From: a virus
Virus record (IMG/VR): IMGVR_UViG_3300042197_004918
Coordinates: 32,001 to 96,000 of that record
Direction: 5' to 3' (one strand)
DNA: 64,000 nt
The notes under the pieces: model-generated
The model's database searches: none
Seen by the model: only the letters and a program-made list of their open reading frames with translations
What the model was told of the DNA's origin: nothing
Program-made: the position numbers and the translations under genes
Shown: piece after piece, positions 478 through 38,069 of the stretch
Layout: each line of letters starts with the position of its first letter
How positions within the stretch are numbered: the stretch's first letter is position 1

Positions 478-1446
478 ATGAAACAGTCTGACGACATTAA
501 AAAGAAACTCTCCAAGTGTAGTTCCCTTATTCCACCATCGCTTATAATAAGCGACTTGAAGTGGAAATACCTATGTAGGAGTGTTTTACGTGGAAAGAAT
601 GTTTTAGTGGTAGGTCCGACTGGATGTGGAAAAACGTTGGCTGCCAAGAGTGTTGCCAAAGCACTGGCCTCTGATGAACAGTTCTTCTATTTCAATCTCG
701 GCAGCACACAAGATTCCAGAAGTTCCCTCATTGGAAATACACACTTCGATAAATCCACAGGAACAATTTTTAACGAATCCACCTTCGTCACAGCAATCCG
801 AACCCCCGGTGCAATAATTCTGTTGGATGAAATTTCTCGTGCTCATCCAGATGCATGGAACATCCTTATGACGGTATTGGATGATTTACAGAGATATTTG
901 AGGTTGGATGAAAAGCGTGACAGCGAGGTTGTCCATGTCGCCGATGGTGTCACCTTCATCGCAACGGCTAACATAGGAAACGAATACACTTCCACGAAAA
1001 TAATGGATAGGGCGTTATTGAACCGATTTAGTGTAAAGATTGAAATGGAACCGTTGGACGCCGAAAATGAATTCAATCTGTTAAAATCTAGGTTTGACAT
1101 AACTGACGACTCTCTTCTCGAAACGCTTAAACATATGGTGGAGATTGCCGGTCACACAAGAAAGGCTCTAAAACAAGAGGATTCGTCCTTGACGAATTTC
1201 CTTTCAACTCGTGACACGGTTGAGATGGCTGAATTGTTGACTGACGGTTTTAGCCTTTTGGAAATTGCGGAGAACGTAATATATCCGAACTTTGAACAAG
1301 AGGGTGGTGCCGACAGTGAACGGACGTATATAAAACAACTGGTCCAAAAATATGTGGTAGACCCTAACCTACCGAAAAATCTGTTCAAGACGCCGCCTGC
1401 AAAAACCGGAACTCCATCCGCACCGACGAGTAAGGTGCCATTCTGA
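478..1446 (+). CDS. MoxR/CbbQ/CobS-like AAA+ ATPase
   Basis: Walker A GPTGCGKT, Walker B LLDEI, sensor FIATAN, DRALLNRF arginine finger. Confidence 0.9.
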   Translation: MKQSDDIKKKLSKCSSLIPPSLIISDLKWKYLCRSVLRGKNVLVVGPTGCGKTLAAKSVAKALASDEQFFYFNLGSTQDSRSSLIGNTHFDKSTGTIFNESTFVTAIRTPGAIILLDEISRAHPDAWNILMTVLDDLQRYLRLDEKRDSEVVHVADGVTFIATANIGNEYTSTKIMDRALLNRFSVKIEMEPLDAENEFNLLKSRFDITDDSLLETLKHMVEIAGHTRKALKQEDSSLTNFLSTRDTVEMAELLTDGFSLLEIAENVIYPNFEQEGGADSERTYIKQLVQKYVVDPNLPKNLFKTPPAKTGTPSAPTSKVPF

Positions 1447-1447
1447 T

Positions 1448-3532
1448 ATGGAACCAACAGTCTATTCCGATTTTTGGATGGGTGATGACGGCATCAAACA
1501 AGATGAACCCGCAGAGTATTTACACCTAATCCGTCTTGCTCAATACAGAAAAGCCATAAGCAACTTTGTAAACATTTTGACCGGACGAAACATTCCCGTC
1601 CACTTCAATGTTAAAGACAAAAATGCCACCGATGGTGAAATCGTCTATCTTTCACCTAATATAAAGCAAAAAAAGGATTTTGACGTTGCGGTGGGGTTGT
1701 CTCTCCATGAAGGTGCCCATATAGTCCATAGTGATTTCTTGATACTAAAAACTCTCTGGCAAAGAACTCCCCGTAAGCTATACGACCTGGCGGTCAAGAA
1801 GAATATAACAAAATCCCGTGTAGCAGCTTTGGTAAAAACCATGCTTAATTACGTGGAGGATAGGTTCATAGATTCTCTGATTTATAGGGATGCTCCTGGT
1901 TACAGAGGATATTACATTTCATTGTATGACAGGTATTTTAACCTAGAAGACAACTCGACAGCGTTGAAGTCAAACGTCTATAGGTTTCCCAGCCTTTCAG
2001 CGTATGAGTTTCGTATCATAAACTTCACAAACCCTGCAACAGATTTGTCAGCTTTGCCTGGCCTTGAAGAGATTTACAATCTGATTGATATACCAACGGT
2101 TCTTAGACTCAAAACTCCAAATGATAGATTCTTGGTAGCTGTAGACATCTGTGAGATAATACTGAAAAATTTAGGAAAACAAAAGGGTGAATCCGCTGGA
2201 AAAAACTCAAAACCTGCCACCGGCGCTCCCGGCCCCTCGGACGGAAAATCTAACGGTGACAGTTCATCTCCGCCACCGGAGGAACCATCTGAACCCGAAG
2301 ATTCAACGAAACCGTCTGAAAAGCCCGAGGAGAAGCCCGGTGATGAAGAACCTAAAAAAGACGACATAGGTGGGTCTGACGCAGAAAACACGGTCACTGA
2401 TAAAGATGCGGCTAAAAGTGAGGACGATTTAGAATCTGGCACCGGTGATACATCCGGTGTAAACATTGATAAGTTAAACAAAGTCGTTGATCGCCAAAAA
2501 GCGTTTATTAACGGTGAACTAAAGAAACCCATATTGAATGACGCAGATAGTCAAACGGTATCTTCGATTGATAAGAGCGGCATGGTTTTAATACGTGTTG
2601 GAAAATCGTTATCAAAACAGTCTGATTTCAAAGGAATCGAATGTGTGTTAGTCAAAGAACTGACCAACGAACTGTTGGAAGATGCTGCCTTTCCAATGTT
2701 TACGTTCAAACTCAATTCTCCTTCACCTCACGAACCAGCTGTGCGTGCAGGATTAGTGATGGGCAGATTGTTAGGAAAGCGTTTACAGATACGTGACGAA
2801 GTAAGATCCACAAAGTATAATAGACAACCATCCGGTAAAATAGATAGAAGGCTTCTATCGGAACTTGGTCACGACATCTATAACGTATTTTATACAACCA
2901 AGGTAGACAAATTTAATGAAATATCAATTCATATTTCAGTTGACGCCAGCAGTTCAATGGCTGGAAAGAAGTGGTCTAAGACACTCACCAGCGTAGTTGC
3001 TATATGCAAAGCGGCGTCTATGATTTCTAATATAAAGGTGTCAGTGAGCTTCAGAACTACCCTACGGACGTCCTCCGGAGAGGTTCCTTATGTGGTAATG
3101 GCCTACGATTCCACGAAAGACTCAATCACCAAGGTAATAACTCAATTCAAGTATCTTTCCCCCAATAATACCACTCCTGAGGGTTTGGCGTTTGAGGCTA
3201 TTTTAACAAACTTGCCGCAACCAAAAATCGGTGAGGATAGATATTTTCTTAACTTCTCGGACGGTCAACCGTGCTTCCAAGGGAGCAGAGATGGTAAAAT
3301 ACTGTATATCGGTGCCCCAGCGGTAGAACACACACGCATTCAAGTTTCGGAGATAAGGAGGCTTGGATACAAGATACTGTCATACTTCATAGAATCCGAC
3401 CAGGCCGAGTTATCCGAAGAACTGAAAAAGGATTTTAGAAAAATGTATGGGAAAGATGCCGCATTCGTAGATGTAAATAATGTGGTGAAAATCTCAAACA
3501 CAATGAATGCCATGTTTTTGAAAAAAGACTGA
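1448..3532 (+). CDS. vWA-domain protein with N-terminal HExxH metallopeptidase-like domain (CobT-like MoxR partner)
   Basis: HEGAH, NYVED, acidic/Pro linker, SGKID, MIDAS DASSS, TPEG and FSDGQP motifs; directly follows the AAA gene. Confidence 0.85.
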   Translation: MEPTVYSDFWMGDDGIKQDEPAEYLHLIRLAQYRKAISNFVNILTGRNIPVHFNVKDKNATDGEIVYLSPNIKQKKDFDVAVGLSLHEGAHIVHSDFLILKTLWQRTPRKLYDLAVKKNITKSRVAALVKTMLNYVEDRFIDSLIYRDAPGYRGYYISLYDRYFNLEDNSTALKSNVYRFPSLSAYEFRIINFTNPATDLSALPGLEEIYNLIDIPTVLRLKTPNDRFLVAVDICEIILKNLGKQKGESAGKNSKPATGAPGPSDGKSNGDSSSPPPEEPSEPEDSTKPSEKPEEKPGDEEPKKDDIGGSDAENTVTDKDAAKSEDDLESGTGDTSGVNIDKLNKVVDRQKAFINGELKKPILNDADSQTVSSIDKSGMVLIRVGKSLSKQSDFKGIECVLVKELTNELLEDAAFPMFTFKLNSPSPHEPAVRAGLVMGRLLGKRLQIRDEVRSTKYNRQPSGKIDRRLLSELGHDIYNVFYTTKVDKFNEISIHISVDASSSMAGKKWSKTLTSVVAICKAASMISNIKVSVSFRTTLRTSSGEVPYVVMAYDSTKDSITKVITQFKYLSPNNTTPEGLAFEAILTNLPQPKIGEDRYFLNFSDGQPCFQGSRDGKILYIGAPAVEHTRIQVSEIRRLGYKILSYFIESDQAELSEELKKDFRKMYGKDAAFVDVNNVVKISNTMNAMFLKKD

Positions 3533-4040: not shown

Positions 4041-4082
4041 ACGAGAGAAGAGGGGCACATCAGTGTCCCTTTCTTTTTTCGT
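4041..4082. terminator. hairpin terminator between convergent genes
   Basis: acgagagaagaggggcac-atca-gtgtccctttcttttttcgt inverted repeat with T-rich 3' arm. Confidence 0.7.
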
Positions 4083-4293
4083 AAATCTTCCCAATCTTTA
4101 TAAAATCTGTGTCGAGAGTGTAATAGTTTATCCGTATGGAAGGACTTAGGTTTTTTATCACCGCCGCCACACGATTTTTACTTCCACGAATCAAGGGAAC
4201 GTCCAATTCAGAGTCAAACAATACACAGTTCGTAGCGTCTATTTCTATATAATGAAACAGAGTTTCTTTTACATTGATTTTCTTGAATGTCAT
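4060..4293 (-). CDS. hypothetical protein
   Basis: 77-aa ORF filling the gap between + strand genes. Confidence 0.5.
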   Translation of the reverse strand: MTFKKINVKETLFHYIEIDATNCVLFDSELDVPLIRGSKNRVAAVIKNLSPSIRINYYTLDTDFIKIGKIYEKRKGH

Positions 4294-4310
4294 GGTATCG
4301 TAGAATACAT

Positions 4311-5492
4311 ATGAGTTCTCCTAACGATTTTTTCGACGTAATTGAATTCGATTACGAACTAGAGAAGAAAAGGTTCGTAGATAACATGAATTTGTTAAAG
4401 TCTATGGATGTCCGTGAACAGACATTCTATAAGAAGTGGTATGAACTACAAACTTACAGAAGCTTAGTAGCAAATTCGTCTATAACGAAGTCGAAAATTT
4501 GGGTTCCAAACGATATACAAGACGAGAAGGAGACTGTTAATCAGTTGGAATCCATGAATCCAACCATTGAACTTGTCACCAACTCCACGGAGAACGATTG
4601 GTTAATGCTGAGGCTTTTCTGTCACACGATGGAGTTCAGCCAAACGCCGGGAAGGTTTTTAAAACTAATCATACACGATGGAACACCTGAACGACGATTG
4701 TTGGGTGGGATTTCCATATCAAGCGACGTCATAGCCATAACTGACAGAGATAATTACATTGGATGGACTTCCGACGATAGGCTCAAGGGTGACAAGAGAA
4801 TCAACAATAGTGCGATTGGAAGCTGCATTATGTCTACACAACCCTTTGGATACAATTTCTTGGGTGGAAAACTTTCGGCTTGTTTGGTCACGACCGATGT
4901 TGTAAGAGACGCCTGGAAGAACGGATATAACAATGTAATGGCGGGCATGACCACCACGAGTTTATACGGAAGTTACAGTATGTATAATAGTCTGAAGTGG
5001 TGGCATAAATGTGGAACAAGTGCTGGAAAGATGCCCATAAAACCGGATGACACGGTTTATGAAGTCTGGCACCACTGGTTACAGGAAAATAAACCCCATG
5101 AGTATGCTGAGATGATGAAGCAGAAGGATGGAGTATCCGGCCCCGTGACAGGAGCGAAACAGAGGGTAATATCCAAGATATTCTCTCAGTTAAAGATGAA
5201 GACGTCGGATTACGTCCACGGATTTGAACGGGGAACATACTACAGTTCCTTCTATGAAAATACCAGAGAATTTCTTTGTAACAAGATTAAAGAGTCGGAT
5301 TTGAGAATGAAACCGCTCTACGCATCTGGGAAAACTTCCATATTAGATTGGTGGAGGCCCAAGGCCATAGACCGATACAAGAAGCTTAGAGCGGAGTCAA
5401 ATTTAAAGGGTGACATTCTCTATTACAATGATATGATCGGGATGGAATATAAAGAAGCCAAGGAGAAATACTTAAATGAAGTCGGAAGATAA
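4311..5492 (+). CDS. DUF4338 / Druantia DruA-like protein (putative Mom/GNAT-type DNA-modifying enzyme), paralog 1
   Basis: PGRFLKL, RDNYIGW, QPFGYNFLGGKL and TTTSLYG motifs; start moved to ATG 4311; N-terminal NDFFD peptide. Confidence 0.75.
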   Translation: MSSPNDFFDVIEFDYELEKKRFVDNMNLLKSMDVREQTFYKKWYELQTYRSLVANSSITKSKIWVPNDIQDEKETVNQLESMNPTIELVTNSTENDWLMLRLFCHTMEFSQTPGRFLKLIIHDGTPERRLLGGISISSDVIAITDRDNYIGWTSDDRLKGDKRINNSAIGSCIMSTQPFGYNFLGGKLSACLVTTDVVRDAWKNGYNNVMAGMTTTSLYGSYSMYNSLKWWHKCGTSAGKMPIKPDDTVYEVWHHWLQENKPHEYAEMMKQKDGVSGPVTGAKQRVISKIFSQLKMKTSDYVHGFERGTYYSSFYENTREFLCNKIKESDLRMKPLYASGKTSILDWWRPKAIDRYKKLRAESNLKGDILYYNDMIGMEYKEAKEKYLNEVGR

Positions 5493-5880
5493 AAAGCAAA
5501 TCAAAATACCCGACGTTGGTGATGACACGACGTTGTTCTTGACAAAAAATGGATACCGATTAGCGCAAGGATATAATCGTGTAGTTTTTGGAGGGCGAGG
5601 AGCCTATGTTGAGTTTCAACCGAAACACGTATTTCACACAAACATCCACATACCAGAAAATCAATTGTTTAGGTTAAGCGACCCCCGAATCTATTACATA
5701 GAGTTTAGAAGCGGTGATGAATCGAACGTGAAGGTTTATTATCAAATGAGAAGCGTAGCGTATGCCGACTACAAAATAGGTATGTTTTACATATGTCCGA
5801 CGCAACTCAAACTTCTCGATGGGGCTAGTGTGTTAAATCGGTCAACTGAAAATGAAAGAAGCGTAGACTTTTTTGAATAA
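5476..5880 (+). CDS. hypothetical protein ending in SVDFFE
   Basis: Overlaps upstream stop; GYNRVVFGGRGAYVEF and YADYK segments; function unknown. Confidence 0.7.
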   Translation: MKSEDKKQIKIPDVGDDTTLFLTKNGYRLAQGYNRVVFGGRGAYVEFQPKHVFHTNIHIPENQLFRLSDPRIYYIEFRSGDESNVKVYYQMRSVAYADYKIGMFYICPTQLKLLDGASVLNRSTENERSVDFFE

Positions 5881-5882
5881 TT

Positions 5883-6740
5883 ATGAAAACCATACAACTA
5901 GAAGACAGCGCGAAGGTTCCCACGTTAGACCAAATAAAGAAACACAGTGAGGACGGGTTAGTCCTGTGCTTCGCTGGTGTTGGTAATGCGTGGGCTAGAA
6001 AAAACGCCAACACGAGTTTGATTGTAGCGAAATACGGTAAGACAATATTGGTTGACTTAGGAACCAGTGTTCCTGTCTCATTGGAGTCACGCGGGGTGAG
6101 TATGTTAGATTTCGACTACTATCATTTTACCCATTCTCACGCCGACCACGTAGGCGCAGTCGAAGAACTTCTTCTAAAGTTGAGGTATATTAAGAAGAAG
6201 AAGGCAAAGGTGATTATCACACACGAATATCAACAGACGCTTTGGAACGAGACTTTGAAGGGTGGGTGTGAGATAAATGAAGACGGACTTTTGCGATTCA
6301 CGGATTTGATAGATGTAGTCCGACCTAATTGGGAATCGTGCCAACCGAGAGAGAAGTATCACATCAAACTTGACGGAATTTTGGATTTTGAGATTTTTAG
6401 AACATTCCATGTTCCGGGAGACGTAAACAGTTGGGAAAAAGCATTTTGGTCCACGGGATTACAATTGGACGGGAAGGTTGTATTTACAGCCGATACTCGA
6501 TTCGATTTGAGTATCTTTGAACATCTGGATTTTAGTTCGGTTGAAGCCATATTCCATGACTGTCAGTTATCCGGCCCAGGTTCAGTTCACGCAACGTATG
6601 AAGAACTTTCTCGACTTCTACCGTCATACAAGGAAAGAATGTATCTTACACACTACGGAGACAATTTTGATAAATTCTCTCCTGAGAAAGACGAGTTCGC
6701 TGGATTTGCTAAACCGTGGGTTTTGTATAAATTCGACTAA
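5883..6740 (+). CDS. MBL-fold metallo-hydrolase, Apyc1-like cyclic-nucleotide phosphodiesterase
   Basis: LVDLG, THSHADH, ADTRFD, IFHDCQL..PG.VHAT.EEL and HYGD motifs. Confidence 0.8.
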   Translation: MKTIQLEDSAKVPTLDQIKKHSEDGLVLCFAGVGNAWARKNANTSLIVAKYGKTILVDLGTSVPVSLESRGVSMLDFDYYHFTHSHADHVGAVEELLLKLRYIKKKKAKVIITHEYQQTLWNETLKGGCEINEDGLLRFTDLIDVVRPNWESCQPREKYHIKLDGILDFEIFRTFHVPGDVNSWEKAFWSTGLQLDGKVVFTADTRFDLSIFEHLDFSSVEAIFHDCQLSGPGSVHATYEELSRLLPSYKERMYLTHYGDNFDKFSPEKDEFAGFAKPWVLYKFD

Positions 6741-6768
6741 TATAAGAAACAAAATCGTAGAAATGTTG

Positions 6769-6797
6769 TTGACAGTTAATAACTCTGGTGGTAAAGT
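6769..6797 (+). promoter_or_regulatory. sigma70-type promoter
   Basis: TTGACA-17 bp-TAAAGT with TGn. Confidence 0.7.
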
Positions 6798-6861
6798 CTT
6801 AAACATAAGTTCGATATAACACTGTTGTTAGAGTCGAAACAAAAAAACAAACACAAAACAT

Positions 6862-7077
6862 ATGATCGCACGTAAAAACAAGAAAAACCGCACAGCATTC
6901 GTCTATGATACCGTTGGCAATTTTGAAGCCTTCGTTTCCCAGACATTCCGTGGAGCCAAACAGGGAAGTCAATTGACCCTTCGCACTGAAACCGACCGCG
7001 TTGACATCTCCGGCCGCGAACTCCGCGTCCTTCGTAACGTATTGACCAAGGCGAACGCATTGGCAGCTCGCGCCTAA
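6862..7077 (+). CDS. small basic hypothetical protein
   Basis: 71-aa ORF behind own promoter and A-rich leader. Confidence 0.7.
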   Translation: MIARKNKKNRTAFVYDTVGNFEAFVSQTFRGAKQGSQLTLRTETDRVDISGRELRVLRNVLTKANALAARA

Positions 7078-7091
7078 CCAAATTCCCACGA

Positions 7092-7382
7092 TTGATTAAA
7101 CGAATTTCAATTTCGGTGATCGTGGGTTTGGCGTGTTGGTTGTTTCCAAAATGTATGCCGGTAATCTTCGGATTGTCGGCATACATCTTTTTTGCATATA
7201 AATCCTCGGTGGAGGCAAACCTGATAAATCAAGACGAGAACAATAAAATTTTCCGAAGGGATATAAGTTCTTTGAATCAGCACATCAACGTGATACAGTC
7301 GTCTCTTAACAAGACATCCGCTCTGAATAGATATGGCAAAACCAAAAAAGAAAAGTTCGACAGAAGACGCTCCCAAGTATAA
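7092..7382 (+). CDS. putative small membrane protein
   Basis: Two hydrophobic segments then coiled coil; TTG start. Confidence 0.45.
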   Translation: MIKRISISVIVGLACWLFPKCMPVIFGLSAYIFFAYKSSVEANLINQDENNKIFRRDISSLNQHINVIQSSLNKTSALNRYGKTKKEKFDRRRSQV

Positions 7383-7821
7383 GTCTCTATTCGACCATAT
7401 CAATCAGATAAGGAACGTAAAAAGCCCCAAGTATTTCGACTCCCTCACCGATGGAGACAAAAAATCCTTCAATCATTACATGATATGTAGGTTTTTGAGC
7501 ATGGATAGTTCGTGCATCAACGAAGTCTCGTATCTTACCAAGATTTTTGATAAAATGGATAGTAAATCGTTTTACAAAGTTGCGTGTGCGTTGGTAAGTC
7601 CTGTAAAATACACACCATACATAAAGAGCAAAAACAAGAAATTTAATCCCACTCTTGTAGGATATATCTCCTCTAAATATGAAGTGAGCAGGTCAGATGC
7701 AAATGATTATTGCAAAACGTTGGTGTCAATAGAAGGTGGGATCGAAGAACTCGCCGAGATATGTAGGGGATATGGTTTGTCGGATAAAGAAATAGAAAAG
7801 ATTTTGAATGATGAAGACTAA
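7333..7821 (+). CDS. clamp loader small subunit (T4 gp62-like)
   Basis: SLFDHI, YMICRFLS, NE, YIK..KK and KYEVS..DA..Y pattern; size matches gp62. Confidence 0.7.
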   Translation: MAKPKKKSSTEDAPKYKSLFDHINQIRNVKSPKYFDSLTDGDKKSFNHYMICRFLSMDSSCINEVSYLTKIFDKMDSKSFYKVACALVSPVKYTPYIKSKNKKFNPTLVGYISSKYEVSRSDANDYCKTLVSIEGGIEELAEICRGYGLSDKEIEKILNDED

Positions 7822-8425
7822 ATACATAGGAATTTCCGGTGTCGCTAGAGTTGGAAAGAACTTATTCTGTGACATCGCGAGTGACATCTTAAAAGAAGAA
7901 TACGGAAAACGGTCGGAAACTTTCGCCTTGGCCACGTATCTCAAACGTGACTGTGAACCATTTTTGAAGGAAAAGTTCGGTCTAAACGTCTGGTCGGAAG
8001 TCACCGAGGAGAAAACCATTTTTAGACCATTTCTAATATGGTATGGTGGCGTTAAGAGAAACTGGTCAAAAGGTAGGTGCTGGATAGATATGTTAGACCC
8101 TGAGATTCGTGCCAGTAAAGCTGATGTATGCTTTGTCAGCGACGTCCGATTTGCTAAATATGCAAACGACGAAGCATTCTGGATTCAGTCGGAGTTATCC
8201 GGTAAACTCGTTCACTTGTCAAGATATAAAGGTTATCCCGGCAGCGAGTTGAGAGATTATACGCCGCCCGCATCAACTGATGAAAGCGAAAACGACCCGA
8301 TGTTAAAACGTATTTCGGATGCATCCTTAGAGTGGAAAGACTCTGGTTGTAAAACCCATGAAGACGCCAGAAAAAACTTGACTCTAAGAGAGAATGTCCG
8401 CCAGATATTATACAAGGTTTTGTGA
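7808..8425 (+). CDS. deoxynucleoside monophosphate kinase (T4 gp1-like)
   Basis: IGISGVARVGK P-loop, FALA..LK, VSDVRF..NE-like motifs. Confidence 0.75.
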   Translation: MMKTKYIGISGVARVGKNLFCDIASDILKEEYGKRSETFALATYLKRDCEPFLKEKFGLNVWSEVTEEKTIFRPFLIWYGGVKRNWSKGRCWIDMLDPEIRASKADVCFVSDVRFAKYANDEAFWIQSELSGKLVHLSRYKGYPGSELRDYTPPASTDESENDPMLKRISDASLEWKDSGCKTHEDARKNLTLRENVRQILYKVL

Positions 8426-9189
8426 AAGAGAATCTATACAATAATGGAGACACGTTTTTTGACATAGAGAAGTCTAAACTGCAAATCCAACTTATACAAT
8501 GCACTACGCCTGTGCAAAATAAGCTATTTCGTGATACCATAAATAAACACCACTCGTATGTAAAATACAAAGATTCTCCGACGAGGAATCTTAGATACTT
8601 GGTCTACGAAGGCGTGAGTGGAAATCACGTAGGAGCCGTGGGATTGAGCAGTGCCACAATTGCGGTGGCTTGCCGAGATGCATTTGTTGGGTGGAACAAT
8701 GAAACTAAGATGCGTCACCTAAACGAAGTCGCTAACAATAGTAGATTTTGCTTAATAAGAGACAACATCACCATAAAGAATGTGGCAAGTATGTGTCTTC
8801 GCCAGCTGCGCGAAGTTGGTGCAGTGGACTGGAAGAATCGTTACAACGACAGATTAATACTGCTTGAGACGTTTGTTCAGCCCGACAGAGATGTTTCATT
8901 AGACGGACACGTATCGAGAAACGGCAGTTGTTATAGAAGTGATAACTGGGTCGAGGTCGGAATGACATCTGGTGCAAGTATCCAAAAGTCTCCGTTATTG
9001 TTATGGGCGAAGGAGAAGGGAGAAAGAGGAAGGCTTGCCAGAGAAAACAAAGAGGAGTGTCTAAAGATATATGGAAAGTATCTTGGAGAACACAATGGTA
9101 GCGGATATAAAGTAACTGAAAGTAAGAAAAAAATTGTGTTTGTAAGACCTCTGGTCCATAATTGGAAAACCTTATTGAACCATGAGTGA
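8422..9189 (+). CDS. DUF4338 / DruA-like protein (Mom-like), paralog 2
   Basis: HHSY, RDAFVGW, ANNSRF, LLETFV and G.CYRSDNW..VG.T.G motifs; N-terminal DTFFD peptide. Confidence 0.8.
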   Translation: MKENLYNNGDTFFDIEKSKLQIQLIQCTTPVQNKLFRDTINKHHSYVKYKDSPTRNLRYLVYEGVSGNHVGAVGLSSATIAVACRDAFVGWNNETKMRHLNEVANNSRFCLIRDNITIKNVASMCLRQLREVGAVDWKNRYNDRLILLETFVQPDRDVSLDGHVSRNGSCYRSDNWVEVGMTSGASIQKSPLLLWAKEKGERGRLARENKEECLKIYGKYLGEHNGSGYKVTESKKKIVFVRPLVHNWKTLLNHE

Positions 9190-10510
9190 TTTTTTTGAAT
9201 ACGACAATCCGGAGGTAGAGTGTAAATATAGAATTTTGGTGTGGCCAAACATAACCTACTCCGAGGATTTGGAGAAGGATTCCTACGTGGTAGTGTTGTC
9301 AAACGTCATTCGTGAAGTCAACAAGATGGTTCCGGGAATATTTTGGTCTATAGTCACACCAAAAGAAGTCAAGAGTTTGAAATTCCCAAACACAGAACAA
9401 CTCATATTGGATTTTCCGACGTATCCAAATTCGATGAGGATAAATTTCGACTTCAAGAAAGTGATGAACCTTGTCGATTGGCGGAAAAACGATTACGACA
9501 TCATTTACAGCCATTTGCCAGAACACACGCTTCAACTTTCAAACCTCTTCAACAACCAGACTAATATACGTCCCAAGTTTTTGGGATACTGTCATTGGTA
9601 TGAAGTAGAGGAAAACACTGCCTACGAGAAGAACGTGTTTATGAACAACATCGCGGGAACTCTTGAAATGCAAGAGTGTGGGGTGAACTCGAACTGGCTG
9701 AAGAACCTCATTCTAAAGAAGGCTTCCAAATTCTACTCTGATTCTGTGTTGAAAGACTTGGAGAGAATAATTCAGCCTCACTATCTCGGAACGGATGTAG
9801 ATTTCGGAAACAATACGAACTTGATTCATAAATCCATTCTTTTCAACCACCGACCAAATGAGTATACGGGTTGGAATGAGTTTTTGAAATCAATGGATAA
9901 GTTATACGAAACTCGTCAAGACTTCACTGTGTATGTGACTCTTGCGGAAGTCGAACGGCCCTACATCAAGAAAGTGTGCCTCAATCGTAAAGACTACACG
10001 AATTTCTTAAAACAGATGCACGTTGGAGTTGGGTTCTTCAAAGACTACAGCGCATGGTCTATTTCCGCTACGGATGGGATGAGCCGTGGACTTCCATATC
10101 TTCTGCCTAAAAGACTTTGTTATCCCGAAATGGTTGGTGAGGATTATCCGTTGTTCTTCACAACCGACGCAGACTTTCTTTCAAAAATTGGAACCATTCT
10201 CGACGACCCTACCTTTAGAAAGACCCATACGGAAACTCTAAAATCCGTGGTTACAGACCTCTCGTGGAATAACACGGTCAAGGAGTGGTTTGGTGGGTGG
10301 AATGTCTTTGAGTTCGACAAACTCACCAAGGATACTCCTAGATACAATGATATTTTAAAATTGATAAAGACCAAAGGGTTTGTGTCAAAAGAAACCTTGA
10401 TGGATTTCCTCGGTTGGGGTGTCAATATCTCCATGTCTCCTTATAGAAATAGACTCCGAGACGAACCAAATATAACCCTCTTAAAGTCCGGTTATCAATA
10501 TAATAATTGA
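9182..10510 (+). CDS. GT-B (GT4-like) glycosyltransferase with C-terminal HTH-like domain; candidate DNA glycosyltransferase
   Basis: SHLPEH, ILFNHR, WSISATDG..GLPYL and YPEM motifs; extra C-terminal ~55 aa helical domain; begins MSDFFE. Confidence 0.75.
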   Translation: MSDFFEYDNPEVECKYRILVWPNITYSEDLEKDSYVVVLSNVIREVNKMVPGIFWSIVTPKEVKSLKFPNTEQLILDFPTYPNSMRINFDFKKVMNLVDWRKNDYDIIYSHLPEHTLQLSNLFNNQTNIRPKFLGYCHWYEVEENTAYEKNVFMNNIAGTLEMQECGVNSNWLKNLILKKASKFYSDSVLKDLERIIQPHYLGTDVDFGNNTNLIHKSILFNHRPNEYTGWNEFLKSMDKLYETRQDFTVYVTLAEVERPYIKKVCLNRKDYTNFLKQMHVGVGFFKDYSAWSISATDGMSRGLPYLLPKRLCYPEMVGEDYPLFFTTDADFLSKIGTILDDPTFRKTHTETLKSVVTDLSWNNTVKEWFGGWNVFEFDKLTKDTPRYNDILKLIKTKGFVSKETLMDFLGWGVNISMSPYRNRLRDEPNITLLKSGYQYNN

Positions 10511-11990: not shown

Positions 11991-12308
11991 ATGCCACTAA
12001 TAGAATCTACACTTAAACGTCTGATGGGAACCAAAGAAGAAGTATCGGGTTGGTTCGACCGAGCGCGTGAGTCGTATGCCAAAACGATGTTTACCAAATC
12101 AACCGCATTGGACGACACCGAACTAGGTTCTCCCTACGCACAGTTGGACCAGATAAATGGTCAGGAGAAAAAACAAGGATTGGTCTTTTACATGACCGCA
12201 AAAAAGAAGTCTGACGACTTTCTTCCCGGACGAATTCCTGATATAGAGGTGAGACTAGAATCCGTATTCGTATCGTTGCTTGAAACATCTATACCGAACC
12301 CAGAATAA
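11991..12308 (+). CDS. hypothetical protein
   Basis: 105-aa ORF tightly packed in operon. Confidence 0.6.
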   Translation: MPLIESTLKRLMGTKEEVSGWFDRARESYAKTMFTKSTALDDTELGSPYAQLDQINGQEKKQGLVFYMTAKKKSDDFLPGRIPDIEVRLESVFVSLLETSIPNPE

Positions 12309-12312
12309 ATTT

Positions 12313-13293
12313 ATGCCAATCAAAGGAAAACATCTACTACATTATTTGCCACACGGAATTAACGGCACGGTTTTTAAACCGTTGCCAGATAACGACCCGT
12401 CGGTGGTTAAACTTCGCAAGAACGTCTTCAAAGACAAGGAATATGATTTCATGTTCTTTTATAACAGCCGAAACATAAATCGGAAGAGAACGGCCAACAT
12501 CATGTTGGCCTTCAGAACATTCTGTGACAATCTCCCGAAGGAGAAATCCGACAAGTGTATTTTGGTATTACATACCGAAAAGGTGTTGGATGCTGGAACA
12601 GATTTGAACGCGTGCGGCGAAGCGTTCCTCACGGGAATCAACCACATTGTTCTTGAAAACAGATATTCTCCGGAAGAAATGAATATCCTCTACAACATGG
12701 CCGATGTGACAATTAACGTGAGTTCAAATGAAGGTTTCGGTCTTAGCGTAGCTGAGTCAATTATGAGTGGAACTCCTGTGATTGTAAATGTCACCGGAGG
12801 ACTTCAAGACCAAATCGGTCAAGTGGACGACGAGGGGAAGCCGGTGGAATTCTCCAGAGACTTTGGCTCCAATAACGTCCGTAAGTATTCACGTCATGGA
12901 ATTTGGGCAAAACCAGTCTGGCCCGTAACACGAGTTATACAGGGTTCCCCGCCGACACCATACATCTTCGATGACTTGTGTAAGTGGGAAGACGTAGCCG
13001 ACGCCATGATGTATTGGTATACCGCCGGAAAGACGAAGTGCTCAGAATGCGGAGCCGTGGGGAGAGAGTGGGCACTCGGCGAAGGTGGACTCAACCATCT
13101 AAACCTGGCCGACCAGTTTATAAAGGCCATGGATTTCACGTTAGAAAACTTCACTCCACGTTCGAGGTTCAGTCTTCATACCGATTCCGAATATGTGGGT
13201 CACAAGATGCCAGGTAATAGCATGGGATGTGATATTCCAAAGATAGATGTTGATAAAATACACAACGAGTTGAGAGAGAGTAAAATAACTTGA
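12313..13293 (+). CDS. glycosyltransferase (GT4), C-terminal domain half
   Basis: YLPHGIN, NSRNINRKR, EGFGLSVAES, TGGLQDQ; start set to ATG 12313. Confidence 0.85.
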   Translation: MPIKGKHLLHYLPHGINGTVFKPLPDNDPSVVKLRKNVFKDKEYDFMFFYNSRNINRKRTANIMLAFRTFCDNLPKEKSDKCILVLHTEKVLDAGTDLNACGEAFLTGINHIVLENRYSPEEMNILYNMADVTINVSSNEGFGLSVAESIMSGTPVIVNVTGGLQDQIGQVDDEGKPVEFSRDFGSNNVRKYSRHGIWAKPVWPVTRVIQGSPPTPYIFDDLCKWEDVADAMMYWYTAGKTKCSECGAVGREWALGEGGLNHLNLADQFIKAMDFTLENFTPRSRFSLHTDSEYVGHKMPGNSMGCDIPKIDVDKIHNELRESKIT

Positions 13294-13324: not shown

Positions 13325-13990
13325 ATGATACTACAAGTTTTAAAGAATGACACGTTTCTGGTCGAACCGTTATTACCTACTCGTGGGACAGAGAAATCCA
13401 CTGGGTATGACATAAAGGCCATATCTGAACCAGAAATAGTCGGTGTGAAAGATGCCGATAAAGAGTATTACTCTGAATATTACTCCTCGATAGATTATAT
13501 CCAATATAGGACTGGGTTGTTTGTTTCACCAAAATCCTCCACGAGCTTTACTCCGTTTGGAAACGATGTCGTTGAGTATGACATTCTATTGATGCCTAGG
13601 TCATCTATATCAAAATACAATTTATCCCTTGCAAATTCCGTGGGCCTCATAGACACTGATTATAGAAACGAAATCTTAGTTAGATTCAACTATATTTGGC
13701 AGCCGGAAGATTACACCGTCATCAATGGTAGGATTTTTGGAAAACCAAATCTTTCTAAAATCTACAAACGTGGAGACGCGGTGGCTCAGATTAAAGTCAC
13801 CGTGGTTGAGAGGGTAACTTTTCATCTAACCGATTCGTTAGATTCTACCACTCGGACCGGAGGATTTGGGAGCACTGATTCCAGTGCAAAGGAAACATTG
13901 CTCGAAAAGTTTAACTTAAAAACGCAAGAGTCAGCCGTATCTAAGAGATATTTGGACAACATCAAAGAAAGAGAAAAACAGTTTATATGA
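13325..13990 (+). CDS. dut: trimeric dUTPase
   Basis: TGYDI, PRSS, GLIDTDYR, AQI and RTGGFGST motifs. Confidence 0.9.
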   Translation: MILQVLKNDTFLVEPLLPTRGTEKSTGYDIKAISEPEIVGVKDADKEYYSEYYSSIDYIQYRTGLFVSPKSSTSFTPFGNDVVEYDILLMPRSSISKYNLSLANSVGLIDTDYRNEILVRFNYIWQPEDYTVINGRIFGKPNLSKIYKRGDAVAQIKVTVVERVTFHLTDSLDSTTRTGGFGSTDSSAKETLLEKFNLKTQESAVSKRYLDNIKEREKQFI

Positions 13991-15312
13991 ACAAACCATT
14001 ATGTATTTTACAGTCAGCATTATTCACCCGTAGTGGATACGGTGAATGGTCATTAGCGATGGCTAAATCGTTGCTTAGATACGGTAAGTTGGATTTGAAG
14101 ATCGTCCCTACTCGTTGGGGAGGATGTCCGTCCAAGACGTCGCTTTCCGACATGGAGACTCCTGAGGACATCGAATTGTTTAATCGTATTCTTCGACAGC
14201 CGTTACAAAAGCAGCCGGAAGTATTCATTCAAATGACTATTCCAAACGAATATCAGGCCCCCGCAAAGGTGAATATTGGTATGACCGCTGGAATTGAAAC
14301 CACAGTTCCACCGGGAGAGTGGATAGAGGGGATGAACCGGATGACGGCGAATTTCGTTTTATCCAATTTCGTCAAGGATGTGTTTCAAAAAACGGTATTG
14401 ACAAAACAAAACCCAAATGGGACGAAAGAAGAGATTAAACTGAAGAAACCCATCGAAGTAGTCAACTGGGGCGCAGACACATCCATCTATAAAAAGACGG
14501 ACGAGAAGTGTCCAACCTTAGATTCAGAACTTTCTGCGGTAAAGGAAGATTTTTGCTTTTTATTCGTAGGACAGTGGACGCACAGCAATGGATTGTTCAG
14601 TGACAGAAAAGACATCGGAATGTTGATTAAGACGTTCTGTGAAGCCTTCGCGAATCAGAAGAACAAGCCTGCTCTCATACTTAAAACCAGTGGAGTAGCG
14701 TTCTCTCAGGTAGATAAACACGAGTGTCTACGGAGGATAAACGCTATTAAGGCCACTGTCCAGGGTGACCTTCCAAACGTGTATCTTCTTCACGGAGAAT
14801 TGTCCGATGTCGAAATGAACGCACTATTCAATCACGAGAAGGTCAAGTGCCACGTAAGCTTCACTCACGGTGAGGGCTACGGCCATCCACTTTTACTGGC
14901 CTCTTTGAGCGGTAAACCGATAATGGCGTCGGATTGGAGTGGACATTTGGATTTCTTGAACAGAGACAATTCCTATCTTCTCCCAGGAGAAATCAAACCG
15001 GTCAGAGGAGATTCTGTAAATCAGTGGATAATCAGAGAATCGTCTTGGTTCCATGTAAACTATGAGAAAGCCAAGGAAAAGTTGAGAGGAATGGTCACGA
15101 ACTATGACAAACTAACTGAGAAAGCACTCGTAGCAAGCATAGTAAACAAAGATAAGTTCAGCAAGGAAGCGATAGACGTCCAATTCCATGCTATGTTGGA
15201 TAAATACATTCCGGAGTTTCCAACTACTAGCCAGATTGTTCTTCCGAAGTTGAAAAAACTTGAACTTCCTACGTTGAAGAAGATAGAATTGCCAACTTTG
15301 AAGAAAGTGTAA
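13987..15312 (+). CDS. GT4 glycosyltransferase
   Basis: RSGYG, FLFVGQW, DRKD, GEGYGHPLL and WSGHLDF motifs; C-terminal LPxLKK x3. Confidence 0.85.
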   Translation: MNKPLCILQSALFTRSGYGEWSLAMAKSLLRYGKLDLKIVPTRWGGCPSKTSLSDMETPEDIELFNRILRQPLQKQPEVFIQMTIPNEYQAPAKVNIGMTAGIETTVPPGEWIEGMNRMTANFVLSNFVKDVFQKTVLTKQNPNGTKEEIKLKKPIEVVNWGADTSIYKKTDEKCPTLDSELSAVKEDFCFLFVGQWTHSNGLFSDRKDIGMLIKTFCEAFANQKNKPALILKTSGVAFSQVDKHECLRRINAIKATVQGDLPNVYLLHGELSDVEMNALFNHEKVKCHVSFTHGEGYGHPLLLASLSGKPIMASDWSGHLDFLNRDNSYLLPGEIKPVRGDSVNQWIIRESSWFHVNYEKAKEKLRGMVTNYDKLTEKALVASIVNKDKFSKEAIDVQFHAMLDKYIPEFPTTSQIVLPKLKKLELPTLKKIELPTLKKV

Positions 15313-30447: not shown

Positions 30448-31388
30448 ACCTAAGTGTAAATCCTGAATTTGGTATAGAACTTACACTGGCGGTTCCCTAC
30501 GCACATTTCTTGCATAAGAATGGTCAATTAGAATCAGTGGAAACCTCAATGGGGATGAAACCGTTCTATTTTTTCTGTAAAGATGTCAGAGAGGTTTATC
30601 GGGGAAGAAGTTTAGATAATTTAGCCGCGTTAAAACAGGTTCCTAACAAATGGATACACCATAACGCCGAGGCAGTTCTGGGAAAAGATTATAGTCTCCT
30701 TACCGACGAAGAGAAAGCGTCTGTAAATGGGGTTCTTGACTACTCGGAATGGCTGCCGGTCGATTTCAAATCCCATTACAGAAACGAAGAATTCAAGTTT
30801 GATAAACCAATGGTCTTTGTGACCAATAAGTTTAATATAGAACATGGAGAAGTTCCAATGGGATACTTTGACATAGAATGTCTGTGTTGGATGTTCGACT
30901 TTTTTAAAAACAAAGGATACACAGTTATTTATAAACGGGCGACAAACCGAGAAACGGAATTTTCTAAGGATGCCAATGAAATTCAGTCTCTCGAAAATGG
31001 ATACGAAGACATATGCGCCGATGTTGCTGGTATAGGAGTCATTACCGACTTCCAGTTGACAAAATACTTTGATAATGTTATTCTCCTCTCTGATATTGTG
31101 GGAAAATCAAAACAGCCTTATAATGAAGTTCAACTGAAGGTTTTGGCTAACTGTGATAAGTTTGTAAGCGTATGTGGTGGAAATTCGATATTATCTTCCA
31201 TGTTCGGCGGAACCGTGATAAGTTACATTCATAAGGGAAAAGAACTCCGACCAAATTACTTTGGTGTAAATAGTTACTTCAGAAAGTTGTCAGGAGCAAA
31301 CGTAATACCTACAGTAGATAGAACAGTCATGTTTAACGGTGAACATGATTATTCTGAATTGAAGAGTGCAATAGAAAAGAATTTTTAA
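30444..31388 (+). CDS. putative glycosyltransferase (GT9-like)
   Basis: EFGIEL, CDKFVSVCGG motif; cluster context. Confidence 0.5.
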   Translation: MNLSVNPEFGIELTLAVPYAHFLHKNGQLESVETSMGMKPFYFFCKDVREVYRGRSLDNLAALKQVPNKWIHHNAEAVLGKDYSLLTDEEKASVNGVLDYSEWLPVDFKSHYRNEEFKFDKPMVFVTNKFNIEHGEVPMGYFDIECLCWMFDFFKNKGYTVIYKRATNRETEFSKDANEIQSLENGYEDICADVAGIGVITDFQLTKYFDNVILLSDIVGKSKQPYNEVQLKVLANCDKFVSVCGGNSILSSMFGGTVISYIHKGKELRPNYFGVNSYFRKLSGANVIPTVDRTVMFNGEHDYSELKSAIEKNF

Positions 31389-35324: not shown

Positions 35325-37856
35325 ATGTATCAAAATATTTTCGTAGACAAGAAGACAGAAACCATTTTCATATGGGATGACCAAGCGGGCTTAGTGAAAG
35401 TCCCGATTTCTGACGCAACCTATGCTTACAGAAAGCGTGACGGTGGCCGATACAAATCCTTATATGGTGATGAACTTGAACGGATACGAGACTTTTCTCC
35501 CCGCGACCCGTTGCTGTTTGAATCTGACGTCCCGTTGACCACTAGGGTATTGATAGACGCTTATGAGGACTCTGACGAACCCTCCACTGGCCATGTCGTG
35601 CTGTTCCTCGACATAGAAATCGACATTACAAACGGTTTCTCCACTCCGCAGGACGCAGAAAACGAAATCACTGCGATTGCTTTATACGACGACATTACTA
35701 AGAAGTATACCGCGTTAATTCTCGATAAGAAAGGTGACTTGCCTGACGAATCGAATCAATCGGATGCAACTGTATTATCATTCAACTCCGAAGAATCTCT
35801 GCTTTCGTGTTTCTTGAACAAGGTTGAAGAAACTCGCCCAACCATTATTACGGGGTGGAACGTGGCCGAGTTCGATATGCCCTACCTCATTAACAGGATA
35901 ACAAAGGTGCTCGGAAGAAATCAGTCTTCCCGTATGTCACCTATCAACGTCTCATACATCAGCAAGGCTTTTGGAGACGTGGTTGTGGCTGGAGTTTCGA
36001 TTCTTGACTACATGGTTTTGTATAAGAAGTTCATTGGCCGAAACGAACCAAGTTATGCATTGGGAGCGATAGCAAAACGTGTAGTCCAGATGGATAAGTT
36101 GGCCTACGACGGAAACCTGCAGGATTTATTTAGGTCTGACATCAAGAAATACATCGAATACAACTTGAACGACGTCAAGATTGTGGTCGCTATAGACCAG
36201 AAATTAAAGTTCATTGATTTGGCGAGGAACATTTGCCACACGGGCCACGTTCCATACGAATACTTCGGTATGTCAAGCCGATATATCGAAGGAGCGATGT
36301 TGATATACCTTCGCAGGATGGGGCTTGTGGCTCCAAATAAATCGTTGGAAGGTCAAGCAGAGTTTGCTGCAAGGACTGAGGGCGACGAAGATGGGTTTGA
36401 AGGAGCATTCGTTAAAGACCCGGTTCCGGGAAGATATGATTGGGTGTATGACTTGGATTTAACCTCCATGTATCCCAACATTATGATAAGTCTAAACATC
36501 AGCCCGGAGACGGTCATTTCAAAGGTAGAAGGGTGGAACGTAGAGAAATATCTTAAAAACGAATATACGTCAGTCAAGATGTCGGGAACCGAATATCCAA
36601 TTGACGATTTCAAGAAGATGATGGAAGAGAAGAAGTTTTCTATCGCTTCAAATGGTGTAATTTACAGAAACGACAAACCGGGACTGATTCCTTCTATTTT
36701 GATAAAGTGGTTCGATGAAAGAAAAGCGTTGCGTAAGAAAGCCAAGGAATTCGCTGAGGCGGGAGACACGGAACAGTATGAATTCTATAATGGTCGTCAA
36801 GGCGTCCAAAAGATTCTACTCAACAGCGCATATGGTGTCTTGGGATTGGAAGTATTCCGATTTTACAACAAAGACAACGCCGAGGCCGTCACTCTAACGG
36901 GCCAGGATATCATCAAGACCACCAACAAAGCCATCAACCTCTATTACAAGAATGTCCTCCAGAAAGATGGAGATTATGTTGTATATGTAGACACCGATTC
37001 GGCCTTCGCAAGTGCCGTTCCTATCATCGAAAAGACGATGCCCGAAGTAGATTTGAAAGATGATAAACAGATGACGGTCGCAATATTGAAAGTTGCCGGT
37101 GACGTCCAACTGTTCGTCAATAAGTTTTACGATGTCATGGCTAAGAAGTTCTTTAACATCGAAAAACACCGATTTGATATTAAACAGGAAGTAATATCGA
37201 AGTCTAGTTTCTGGCTTGCCAAGAAACGGTATTGCCAACTTATCATAAACAAAGCCGGTTTACCTGTGGATGAACTTGAAATTAAGGGGATTGACGTCGT
37301 AAGAACCGGCTTCCCCGCGATTTTCAGAAAGTTTATGAAAGAGTTCATCGTTGATATTTTGAAGAAAGTTGACCAACGGAAGATAGACGATGATATTGTA
37401 AAGTTTCTGGAAGACATAAACACATTGTCGGTTGTGGAACTTGCTAAGAACACATCCGTAAAGTTTATCAGTTTGGATAAAACCAAGAATTACAATCCGA
37501 AGGAGAGGAAGCCCTTTCAGACCATGAAGGGCACGCCCGCACAAGTCAAGGCTGCCTTGATGTATAATGACTTACTTGAAAAGTGGGAATTGACCAAACA
37601 CGTCCAACCAATCTTTAACGGGCAGAAGATTAAGTGGGTGTATATCCGTGATAATGAGTATGGTATTGATGCTCTTGCTATGAAAGCGGATGGGAATGAC
37701 CCGAAGGAAATGATTGAGTTTATCGCTAAGTATATTGACCGAAAAGCGATGTATGACCAAGAGTTGAAAAGCAAGTTGGGTGACTTCTATTCAATTTTGA
37801 AGTGGGATTATCCAAGTCTGGAGAGTCGAAAAGCAGAGGAGTTCTTTTCTTTTTAA
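35325..37856 (+). CDS. family B DNA polymerase (T4 gp43-like)
   Basis: Exo DIEID, GWN..FD, YNLND; pol DLTSMYP, KILLNSAYG, YVDTDS, KKRY; ends AEEFFSF. Confidence 0.97.
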   Translation: MYQNIFVDKKTETIFIWDDQAGLVKVPISDATYAYRKRDGGRYKSLYGDELERIRDFSPRDPLLFESDVPLTTRVLIDAYEDSDEPSTGHVVLFLDIEIDITNGFSTPQDAENEITAIALYDDITKKYTALILDKKGDLPDESNQSDATVLSFNSEESLLSCFLNKVEETRPTIITGWNVAEFDMPYLINRITKVLGRNQSSRMSPINVSYISKAFGDVVVAGVSILDYMVLYKKFIGRNEPSYALGAIAKRVVQMDKLAYDGNLQDLFRSDIKKYIEYNLNDVKIVVAIDQKLKFIDLARNICHTGHVPYEYFGMSSRYIEGAMLIYLRRMGLVAPNKSLEGQAEFAARTEGDEDGFEGAFVKDPVPGRYDWVYDLDLTSMYPNIMISLNISPETVISKVEGWNVEKYLKNEYTSVKMSGTEYPIDDFKKMMEEKKFSIASNGVIYRNDKPGLIPSILIKWFDERKALRKKAKEFAEAGDTEQYEFYNGRQGVQKILLNSAYGVLGLEVFRFYNKDNAEAVTLTGQDIIKTTNKAINLYYKNVLQKDGDYVVYVDTDSAFASAVPIIEKTMPEVDLKDDKQMTVAILKVAGDVQLFVNKFYDVMAKKFFNIEKHRFDIKQEVISKSSFWLAKKRYCQLIINKAGLPVDELEIKGIDVVRTGFPAIFRKFMKEFIVDILKKVDQRKIDDDIVKFLEDINTLSVVELAKNTSVKFISLDKTKNYNPKERKPFQTMKGTPAQVKAALMYNDLLEKWELTKHVQPIFNGQKIKWVYIRDNEYGIDALAMKADGNDPKEMIEFIAKYIDRKAMYDQELKSKLGDFYSILKWDYPSLESRKAEEFFSF

Positions 37857-37859
37857 ATT

Positions 37860-38069
37860 ATGAATTCTAAATTAACTCACGCGTGTTTGCCTCCGGATAG
37901 AGAGGAAATATTTCGATTGTTGGATATGTTTGAAGGTGGTGCATATACGGAAAATTATATGGTTGCATCGGTGATGAAACATCTTAGAGGAAGAGCTAAC
38001 CCCGTATTAGTGAGAAACGTCGTCGCGGAATACTTTAAAGGAAGTAATAGAAAGATAAGAGTAGTATGA
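37860..38069 (+). CDS. small protein resembling the GatB/YqeY C-terminal helical domain
   Basis: MVASVMKHLRGRANPVLV pattern. Confidence 0.5.
   Translation: MNSKLTHACLPPDREEIFRLLDMFEGGAYTENYMVASVMKHLRGRANPVLVRNVVAEYFKGSNRKIRVV

Follow-up and report, generated by a model that had tools for sequence, protein, structure and literature searches.

Type I Druantia has DruA as its signature protein, which also gives its name to the DruA/DUF4338 family (PF14236). Two members of this family, termed here paralog 1 and paralog 2, are encoded within 5 kilobases (kb) of each other on a 64,000-nucleotide stretch of viral DNA (the window), which corresponds to bases 32001-96000 of the 173,817-base IMG/VR virus record IMGVR_UViG_3300042197_004918 (CheckV completeness 49%). 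The solved protein that both resemble best is Mom of phage Mu, a tRNA-dependent GNAT that takes glycine from Gly-tRNA, attaches it to N6 of adenine in double-stranded DNA, and acts post-replication (PMC13219725). Residues R111 and S124 of Mu Mom are essential, the H58A, Y59A, and Y159A substitutions drastically reduce activity, and D149 and R151 complete the set of activity residues; a helix-turn-helix (HTH)-like insertion between the last two strands is likewise needed for activity (PMC13219725). DUF4338 has previously been called a GNAT domain (PMC10853773), and DruA-like cyanophage genes, including one with a 'mom' annotation, are also already known. No mechanistic study of DruA was found in the literature searched.

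Both paralogs are GNAT folds by structure prediction, belong to a family with detectable homology to Mom, lie in a block of replication genes, and carry a short terminal peptide that recurs on the DNA polymerase of the same phage. The explanation that we prefer, and to which we give about an even chance of being right, is that the two paralogs are replication-coupled, DNA-modifying transferases related to Mom. The genes on which this comparison turns are the following.

4311-5492 (open reading frame (ORF) 4287-5492), + strand: DruA paralog 1, 393 residues; PF14236 78.6 bits, expect value (E) 5.9e-22
8422-9189, + strand: DruA paralog 2, 255 residues; PF14236 90.6 bits, E 1.4e-25
record bases 30548-31339, 661 bases before the window start: canonical Mom; PF25680 148 bits, phrog_1384

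Both DruA homologs exceed the PF14236 cut-off of 27 bits, and every one of the 50 sequences aligned for paralog 2 matches the model too. The start of paralog 1 is placed at M9 (4311) because its homologues are 393 residues long. Paralogs 1 and 2 share 22% identity over about 200 residues (BLASTP E 1e-7), and their family profiles align with a probability of 95.8%. This combination of low identity and matching profiles marks them as divergent paralogs of different subtypes, as had been proposed in the initial annotation of this DNA.

Structure models were built from alignments of metagenomic homologues, comprising 50 sequences for paralog 2 and 33 for paralog 1. Both models are GNAT folds, which agrees with the earlier assignment of the domain (PMC10853773) and bears out the expectation of the initial annotation, and both have Mom (8bv8) as their best solved match. 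The paralog 2 model (predicted local distance difference test score (pLDDT) 87.9) matches Mom with a Foldseek E of 8.6e-7; the runner-up, an ordinary acetyltransferase, has 1.1e-4. With VIA-align, Mom scores Z 14.0 over 174 aligned residues and the next entry Z 12.7 over 135; Z values of at least 8 were obtained for 672 of the 999 Foldseek top-ranked chains, and all 50 entries listed are acyl- or acetyltransferases. The 174 residues aligned to Mom compare with 135-159 for the other GNAT entries listed. In the predicted structure, some 40 inserted residues, which form three helices (192-196, 201-208, and 210-217), separate the last two strands (185-189 and 229-233), apparently at the place where Mom has its HTH-like insertion. 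In the paralog 1 model (pLDDT 82), the GNAT core is flanked by helical regions on its N- and C-terminal sides, large extensions that set it apart from Mom. It matches Mom with a Foldseek E of 3.5e-3 and a VIA Z of 9.2 over 180 aligned residues, and 75 chains reach a Z of at least 8, nearly all of those listed being acetyltransferases.

GNATs that use coenzyme A (CoA) have a Q/R-x-x-G-x-G/A pyrophosphate loop, which we take to fall at IKNVASMCL in paralog 2, at NFLGGKLSA in paralog 1, and at RNSESRAIS in Mom. On direct reading of the sequence, the paralog 2 segment, like that of Mom, holds no glycines. The corresponding segment of paralog 1 is glycine-rich with non-canonical spacing.

The homology to Mom also emerges from profile comparison. 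A diverse DUF4338 alignment, consisting of 102 of the 2,786 representatives recovered by an exhaustive profile search, aligns with the Mom-family profile in hhalign with 94.9-95.2% probability (E 2.9e-8 to 4.5e-8) over 132-136 columns, which cover the whole GNAT core. Searches of PDB sequences by phmmer and hmmsearch gave no relevant match, and forced global hhalign paired only the FF termini. The near-invariant residues of DUF4338 are, in paralog 2 numbering, H44, G90, N106, R108, S123, L126, W137, T150, G168, Y171, A173, W176, G180, T182, and G184. In the hhalign alignment, H44, Y46, R108, S123, and Y171 of paralog 2 fall on H58, Y59, R111, S124, and Y159 of Mom, so that paralog 2 has aligned counterparts for five of the seven activity residues of the Mu enzyme. 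One ESM Atlas cluster bridges the two families: all of its members match PF14236 and 12% also match Mom.

The initial annotation had drawn the connection to Mom from the motif ETFV...G.CY..NW..G. This motif is indeed present in paralog 2 (ETFVQPDRDVSLDGHVSRNGSCYRSDNWVEVG), but we place G.CY..NW..G at the generic GNAT motif B, and it therefore says little alone. As a Mom-specific signature it was set aside: of all the features that recall Mom it carries the least weight, and the telling residues are H44, Y46, R108, and S123.

The canonical Mom of this phage, encoded about 5 kb upstream of paralog 1, still has the H, Y, R, S, D, Y, and W residues. Relative to Mu Mom, about 20 residues are added at its C-terminus, and these end in FF. 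About 1,200 metagenomic homologues were recovered for this protein, many on contigs that also encode both DruA paralogs.

The two paralogs differ in their relation to DruA. The PADLOC DruA model (PDLC00002) gives paralog 1 70.7 bits over positions 88-376 of 407 and paralog 2 24.4 bits over positions 86-171 only, while ten other bacterial DUF4338 proteins score at most 32 bits. As a reference for real DruA we used four annotated plasmid proteins, two of which have DruB-C-D-E directly downstream, including an 1,840-residue helicase. In alignment, paralog 1 and these four proteins have in common the motifs YN.LGGKL.ACL, TT[ST]S..G..S.YN.LK, and HG..R[EG] as well as a C-terminal region, so that paralog 1 shares both the full-length architecture and the signature motifs of DruA. 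All five lack the Arg of NN.RF and the Ser of KN.AS, which are common to paralog 2, generic DUF4338, and Mom, and which are more than 90% conserved across DUF4338. Paralog 1 replaces these catalytic residues of Mom with a glycine-rich GGK loop, and its core holds a different set of invariant polar residues and motifs (H105, R115, R146, D147, Q177, N182, GGK, TTTSLYG, Y225, and N226). Judged by sequence, paralog 1 is of the true Druantia-DruA type and paralog 2 is of a Mom-like type belonging to another DUF4338 branch.

Paralog 1 differs from real DruA in its identity of 20-22%, in its neighbors, which are replication genes, and in a terminal FF peptide that bacterial DruA lacks. DruB, C, D, and E were not seen beside the paralogs, and a PADLOC run on eight local proteins returned matches for the two DruA genes only; membership in a type I Druantia system was rejected for want of DruB-E. 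The proposal of the initial annotation that phage DruA homologs are base-acylating enzymes, which would in turn suggest a function for bacterial DruA, thus stands in part. The GNAT fold, the kinship to Mom, the catalytic positions kept in paralog 2, and a strongly conserved linkage to replication genes speak for it. Its extension to bacterial DruA is weakened, since real DruA groups with paralog 1 and both lack the Arg and Ser.

DUF4338-type proteins also occur in other settings. The domain is often fused to bacterial DDE transposases (IS4, ISAs1, IS66, and Tn5-like) in ESM Atlas clusters, which suggests a DNA-directed role in transposons. In BFVD, matches to the model of paralog 1 include uncharacterised proteins from giant viruses of eukaryotes (Faunusvirus, E 1.7e-14; Yasminevirus; Dasosvirus), and DruA-like proteins thus reach beyond phages.

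The genes in 4311-10510 are all on the + strand. Besides the two paralogs, they comprise:

5476-5880, + strand: 134-residue protein with no Pfam or PHROG match, overlapping the end of paralog 1 by 17 nucleotides
5883-6740, + strand: Apyc1-like metallo-beta-lactamase-fold hydrolase; PF23023 109.3 bits, cut-off 50
7333-7821, + strand: clamp-loader small subunit, gp62-like; phrog_225, E 1.3e-13
7808-8425, + strand: deoxynucleoside monophosphate (dNMP) kinase, gp1-like; phrog_139, E 8e-11
9182-10510, + strand: putative GT-B/GT4-like glycosyltransferase, 442 residues; assigned by language-model feature search only

The interleaving of the paralogs with gp62-like and gp1-like genes is as first described, and so are the overlaps of paralog 2 with both of its neighbors: its GTG start at 8422 overlaps the TGA of the kinase (GTGA, read from the sequence), and the ATG of the putative glycosyltransferase at 9182 lies 8 nucleotides before its stop. 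The Apyc1-like hydrolase between the paralogs is absent from the initial description. The surroundings of the Mom and DruA genes also include gp32, RecA/UvsX, a flap nuclease, DnaB, ribonucleotide reductase, and a MoxR-VWA pair.

This arrangement was compared among 50 related viral contigs, in which paralog 2 is 47-87% identical. The order paralog 1, (134-residue ORF), (Apyc1-like gene), clamp-loader small subunit, dNMP kinase, paralog 2 recurs in most of the 50 loci. The clamp-loader small subunit immediately precedes the kinase or paralog 2 in nearly all of them, and paralog 2 adjoins the kinase in about 40; in five loci (L020, L024, L025, L036, and L055) the kinase is absent and paralog 2 is still beside the clamp loader. 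Mom lies upstream in most loci with a long enough flank and directly beside paralog 2 in two. The 134-residue protein is found in 10 loci and the Apyc1-like gene in only four, all among the closest relatives (L006-L008 and L017), and one sub-lineage (L030-L034) has paralog 2 alone. The linkage to replication genes is therefore conserved, with the clamp-loader subunit and the dNMP kinase as the constant neighbors. The linkage to a glycosyltransferase is not: the 442-residue ORF adjoins paralog 2 in only seven of the 50 loci and paralog 1 in three.

Homologues of paralog 1 also occur in 25 Synechococcus phage and three Pelagibacter phage records. In the cyanomyophages S-PRM1, S-SSM7, S-SM2, and S-SCSM2R, the paralog 1-type gene lies between gp44 and gp62. 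The proteins known as 'T4-like gene cluster 1216' (S-PRM1 gp050, S-SSM7_173, and S-SM2_144) are 23-30% identical to paralog 1, share its QPFGYN.LGGKL motif, and are encoded directly upstream of the gp62 gene. They differ in being present as a single copy, with no paralog 2 detected by tblastn, and in lacking an N-terminal FF. One cyanophage GenBank record labels the paralog 1-type gene 'methylcarbamoylase mom', and six such cyanophage proteins were called DruA-like in the Phold preprint of 2025. Among cultured phages, tblastn returned nothing for paralog 2 or for the putative glycosyltransferase, and megablast of the region gave no match.

A second link to replication is a short acidic-aromatic peptide at protein termini. 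Farther along from the DruA block, the window encodes:

35325-37856, + strand: family B DNA polymerase; PF00136 E 1.3e-38; C-terminus ..RKAEEFFSF
38066-38941, + strand: N6/N4 DNA methyltransferase; PF01555 E 2.3e-21; C-terminus ...TATEFFEL
39113-39853, + strand: probable sliding clamp, 246 residues; synteny and feature search 0.94
39866-40825, + strand: clamp-loader large subunit, AAA+, gp44-like; PF00004 E 2.1e-17, PF13177 E 1.6e-10

Similar C-termini are carried by Mom (..TETFF) and by the 134-residue protein (...SVDFFE), and the peptide stands at the N-terminus of paralog 1 (MSSPNDFFD), paralog 2 (..GDTFFD..), and the 442-residue ORF (MSDFFEY..). Across the 235 called ORFs of the proteome, [DET]FF occurs 29 times, nine of them at termini as compared to 2.6 expected (P 0.0016). 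Seven of the nine belong to the polymerase, the methyltransferase, Mom, both paralogs, the putative glycosyltransferase, and the 134-residue protein, which act on DNA or probably do. The motif is kept in orthologs while its flanks vary: the polymerase tail reads KAEEFFSF or KASEFFGF in relatives, the single methyltransferase ortholog recovered ends in NAFFEL, and the 134-residue protein ends in [DE]FFE in nine of 10 related loci. The putative glycosyltransferase starts with [DE]FFEY in the seven closest loci, and three distant copies start with MEFWD. Mu Mom and bacterial DruA have no FF tails.

In one sub-lineage the polymerase ends in ..IIFDCE and paralog 2 lacks FF. On these contigs (L063-L065 and L069), which have no paralog 1 or Mom within 10 kb, the N-terminus of paralog 2 thus changes with the tail of the polymerase.

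The tail of T4 gp43 binds the gp45 clamp, and T4 gp33 and gp55 use such a tail too. The gp43 tail (EEKASLDFLFG) is similar to that of the polymerase encoded here, and in both systems a short acidic-aromatic peptide at the end of the polymerase recurs on other phage proteins. The phage peptide differs from that of T4 and RB69 in that DNA-modifying enzymes carry it and that it stands at either terminus. A candidate docking partner is the 246-residue ORF, which in 14 related loci has the polymerase/methyltransferase genes on one side and the AAA+ clamp loader on the other, and which matches gp45 and PCNA clusters with a feature-search score of 0.94. Its comparison with T4 gp45 by BLASTP was not significant, and the Pfam DNA_PPF model has no match in the genome. 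Its position and feature-search match suggest that it is probably the sliding clamp and the likely partner of the FF peptides.

Under the explanation we prefer, three Mom-related transferases (Mom, paralog 1, and paralog 2) would be made from one replication block together with the replication proteins and would then be held by their FF peptides on the sliding clamp behind the fork. There they would add different acyl or aminoacyl marks to newly made phage DNA, beside the FF-tagged DNA methyltransferase and putative glycosyltransferase, and these marks would protect the phage genome from host nucleases. Paralog 2 would perform Mom-like chemistry, and paralog 1 would either use a different mechanism or be a partner without catalytic activity. 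Among the phage genes are 24 for tRNAs (record bases 124718-136545, outside the window), two of them for tRNA-Gly; these fit a tRNA-dependent donor without showing one.

Several observations weigh against this explanation. Neither paralog matches the Mom Pfam model: PF25680 is unmatched by the 50 relatives of paralog 2 at E up to 10 and by paralog 1 at E up to 0.1. Profiles of low diversity, built from close homologues, are not significant against Mom in hhalign, and the link was obtained only with the diverse DUF4338 profile. D149 and R151 of Mom have no clear counterparts, since D149 aligns to Q153 of paralog 2, with D155-R156 two residues on, and R151 is not conserved even in the Mom of this phage. 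For paralog 1, the lead of Mom lies within noise (Z 9.2 versus 8.7 for SpeG-type GNATs); this paralog also has neither the Arg nor the Ser that Mom requires, so that it may be inactive or perform a different chemistry. The pelagiphage and cyanophage homologues lack an N-terminal FF. Clamp binding by the FF peptides is proposed by analogy, and the 246-residue putative clamp is known by its position and a language-model lead. The activity of DUF4338 proteins is putative, and the fusion of many bacterial members to transposases could mean DNA binding instead of catalysis.

Both paralogs could instead be acyltransferases that act on a host or phage protein, an aminoacyl-tRNA (like the TacT and AtaT toxins), or a small molecule, in host takeover or counter-defence, which we consider unlikely. 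GNATs have a very wide substrate range, and tRNA-acetylating members superpose on Mom (PMC13219725). The 24 phage tRNAs and, in the closest relatives, the Apyc1-like anti-Pycsar gene between the paralogs would also suit such a role. This alternative does not account as readily for a position in the replisome block that is conserved from this phage lineage to the cyanomyophages, for a terminal peptide common to the polymerase, the DNA methyltransferase, and the canonical Mom, or for Mom as the best structural match, with an apparent counterpart of its insertion. An action on the nucleotide pool, in which a modified dNMP would be made, phosphorylated by the dNMP kinase, and incorporated, draws on the translational coupling of paralog 2 to that kinase, their adjacency in about 40 of the 50 loci, and the presence of a dUTPase-like gene and a ThyA homologue. 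Mom, however, works post-replication on double-stranded DNA (PMC13219725), a clamp-docking peptide makes little sense on a pool enzyme, and several loci have paralog 2 beside the clamp loader but no kinase; we regard this alternative as improbable.

Paralog 1, and perhaps both paralogs, could instead be a non-catalytic DNA-binding or clamp accessory, such as a subunit that recruits, or confers specificity on, Mom, paralog 2, or the replisome. This would explain why paralog 1 and real DruA lack an Arg and a Ser that are so widely conserved in DUF4338 and essential in Mom, and it suits the extra helical regions at both ends of paralog 1 and the frequent fusion of DUF4338 to transposases, at the place expected for a DNA-binding domain. 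The invariant polar residues kept in the core of paralog 1 look instead like a conserved active or ligand site, and its GGK loop stands at what we take to be the place of the GNAT CoA-pyrophosphate loop; we consider an accessory role rather unlikely. Lastly, paralog 1 might be a decoy copy of DruA that binds or poisons a host type I Druantia complex. Its near end-to-end match to the PADLOC DruA model, at 70.7 bits where most bacterial DUF4338 proteins reach at most 32, is what such a decoy would display. An identity to real DruA of only 20-22%, the fixation of the gene in the replication cluster of phages with very different hosts, the terminal peptide of the polymerase on paralog 1, and the lack of any DruB-E genes or other visible link to Druantia make this highly improbable. 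Replication-coupled DNA modification fits the synteny and the shared peptide better than each of these alternatives.

In the literature searched, we found no report of DUF4338-Mom homology with shared catalytic residues, of a split that places true DruA on a branch without those residues, of a triad of Mom, paralog 1, and paralog 2, or of a link between DruA and the clamp loader or a terminal peptide. With DUF4338 as a relative of Mom, specific mutants and assays can be named for DruA and related proteins, since one branch keeps the Mom residues and the true-DruA branch replaces them. The use of charged tRNA by Mom to modify DNA has been shown only recently, and a lineage with three such enzymes is a place to look for new DNA marks and donors. 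If the FF peptide binds the clamp, phages would possess a general route that couples DNA modification to replication, and further DNA-modifying enzymes of uncultured phages could easily be found by this sequence. A bolder version of this scheme, which we hold to be doubtful, is that Mom, both paralogs, the methyltransferase, and the glycosyltransferase form a clamp-tethered hypermodification suite, each member tethered via its FF peptide and adding a different mark, and that bacterial DruA is the DNA-marking self/non-self enzyme of type I Druantia. DruA would then be the type I equivalent of the DruM methylase of type II Druantia.

The label of the 442-residue ORF as a glycosyltransferase, given in the initial annotation, finds a language-model lead but no hidden Markov model match. 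Pfam, PHROG, and PADLOC returned nothing for it; the feature search leads to viral and bacterial Glycos_transf_1 clusters with scores of 0.96-0.99, and the top viral clusters are 92% Glycos_transf_1 (score 0.99). Its candidacy as a paralog of the 441-residue GT1-like gene at 13987-15312 was rejected on a non-significant BLASTP comparison. A long series of glycosyltransferase and sugar-modifying genes follows paralog 2 in the window (10910-32567) and includes a GT4 (12280-13293), a dUTPase-like gene (13325-13990), a GT2, two GT8, and an oxidoreductase. This part is variable in distant relatives and often lies on the opposite strand, so that paralog 2 marks the end of the conserved replication block.

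Upstream, the DruA block is preceded by a MoxR/CobS-like AAA+ gene and a VWA gene (window 478-3532), and a CobS-like gene has a comparable place in cyanophage S-PRM1, immediately ahead of the genes for the clamp, the clamp loader, and DruA. A 77-residue ORF (4060-4293) runs on the minus strand a short way upstream of paralog 1; its protein is matched at the corresponding position in several distant relatives (L024, L028, L039, L043, L053, and L055), and no other opposite-strand ORF of the block is conserved. Right after the large clamp-loader subunit, 40792-41358 has a weak match to phrog_1817 (nucleoside 2-deoxyribosyltransferase, E 2.5e-4). For a hydroxymethylase route that would serve the putative glycosyltransferase, the phage offers no clear candidate: ThyX was not found, and the ThyA homologue (266 bits) looks like an ordinary thymidylate synthase. 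One of the phage tRNAs has a CUA anticodon, labeled tRNA-Pyl by ARAGORN and resembling an amber suppressor; the window genes are open under the standard code.

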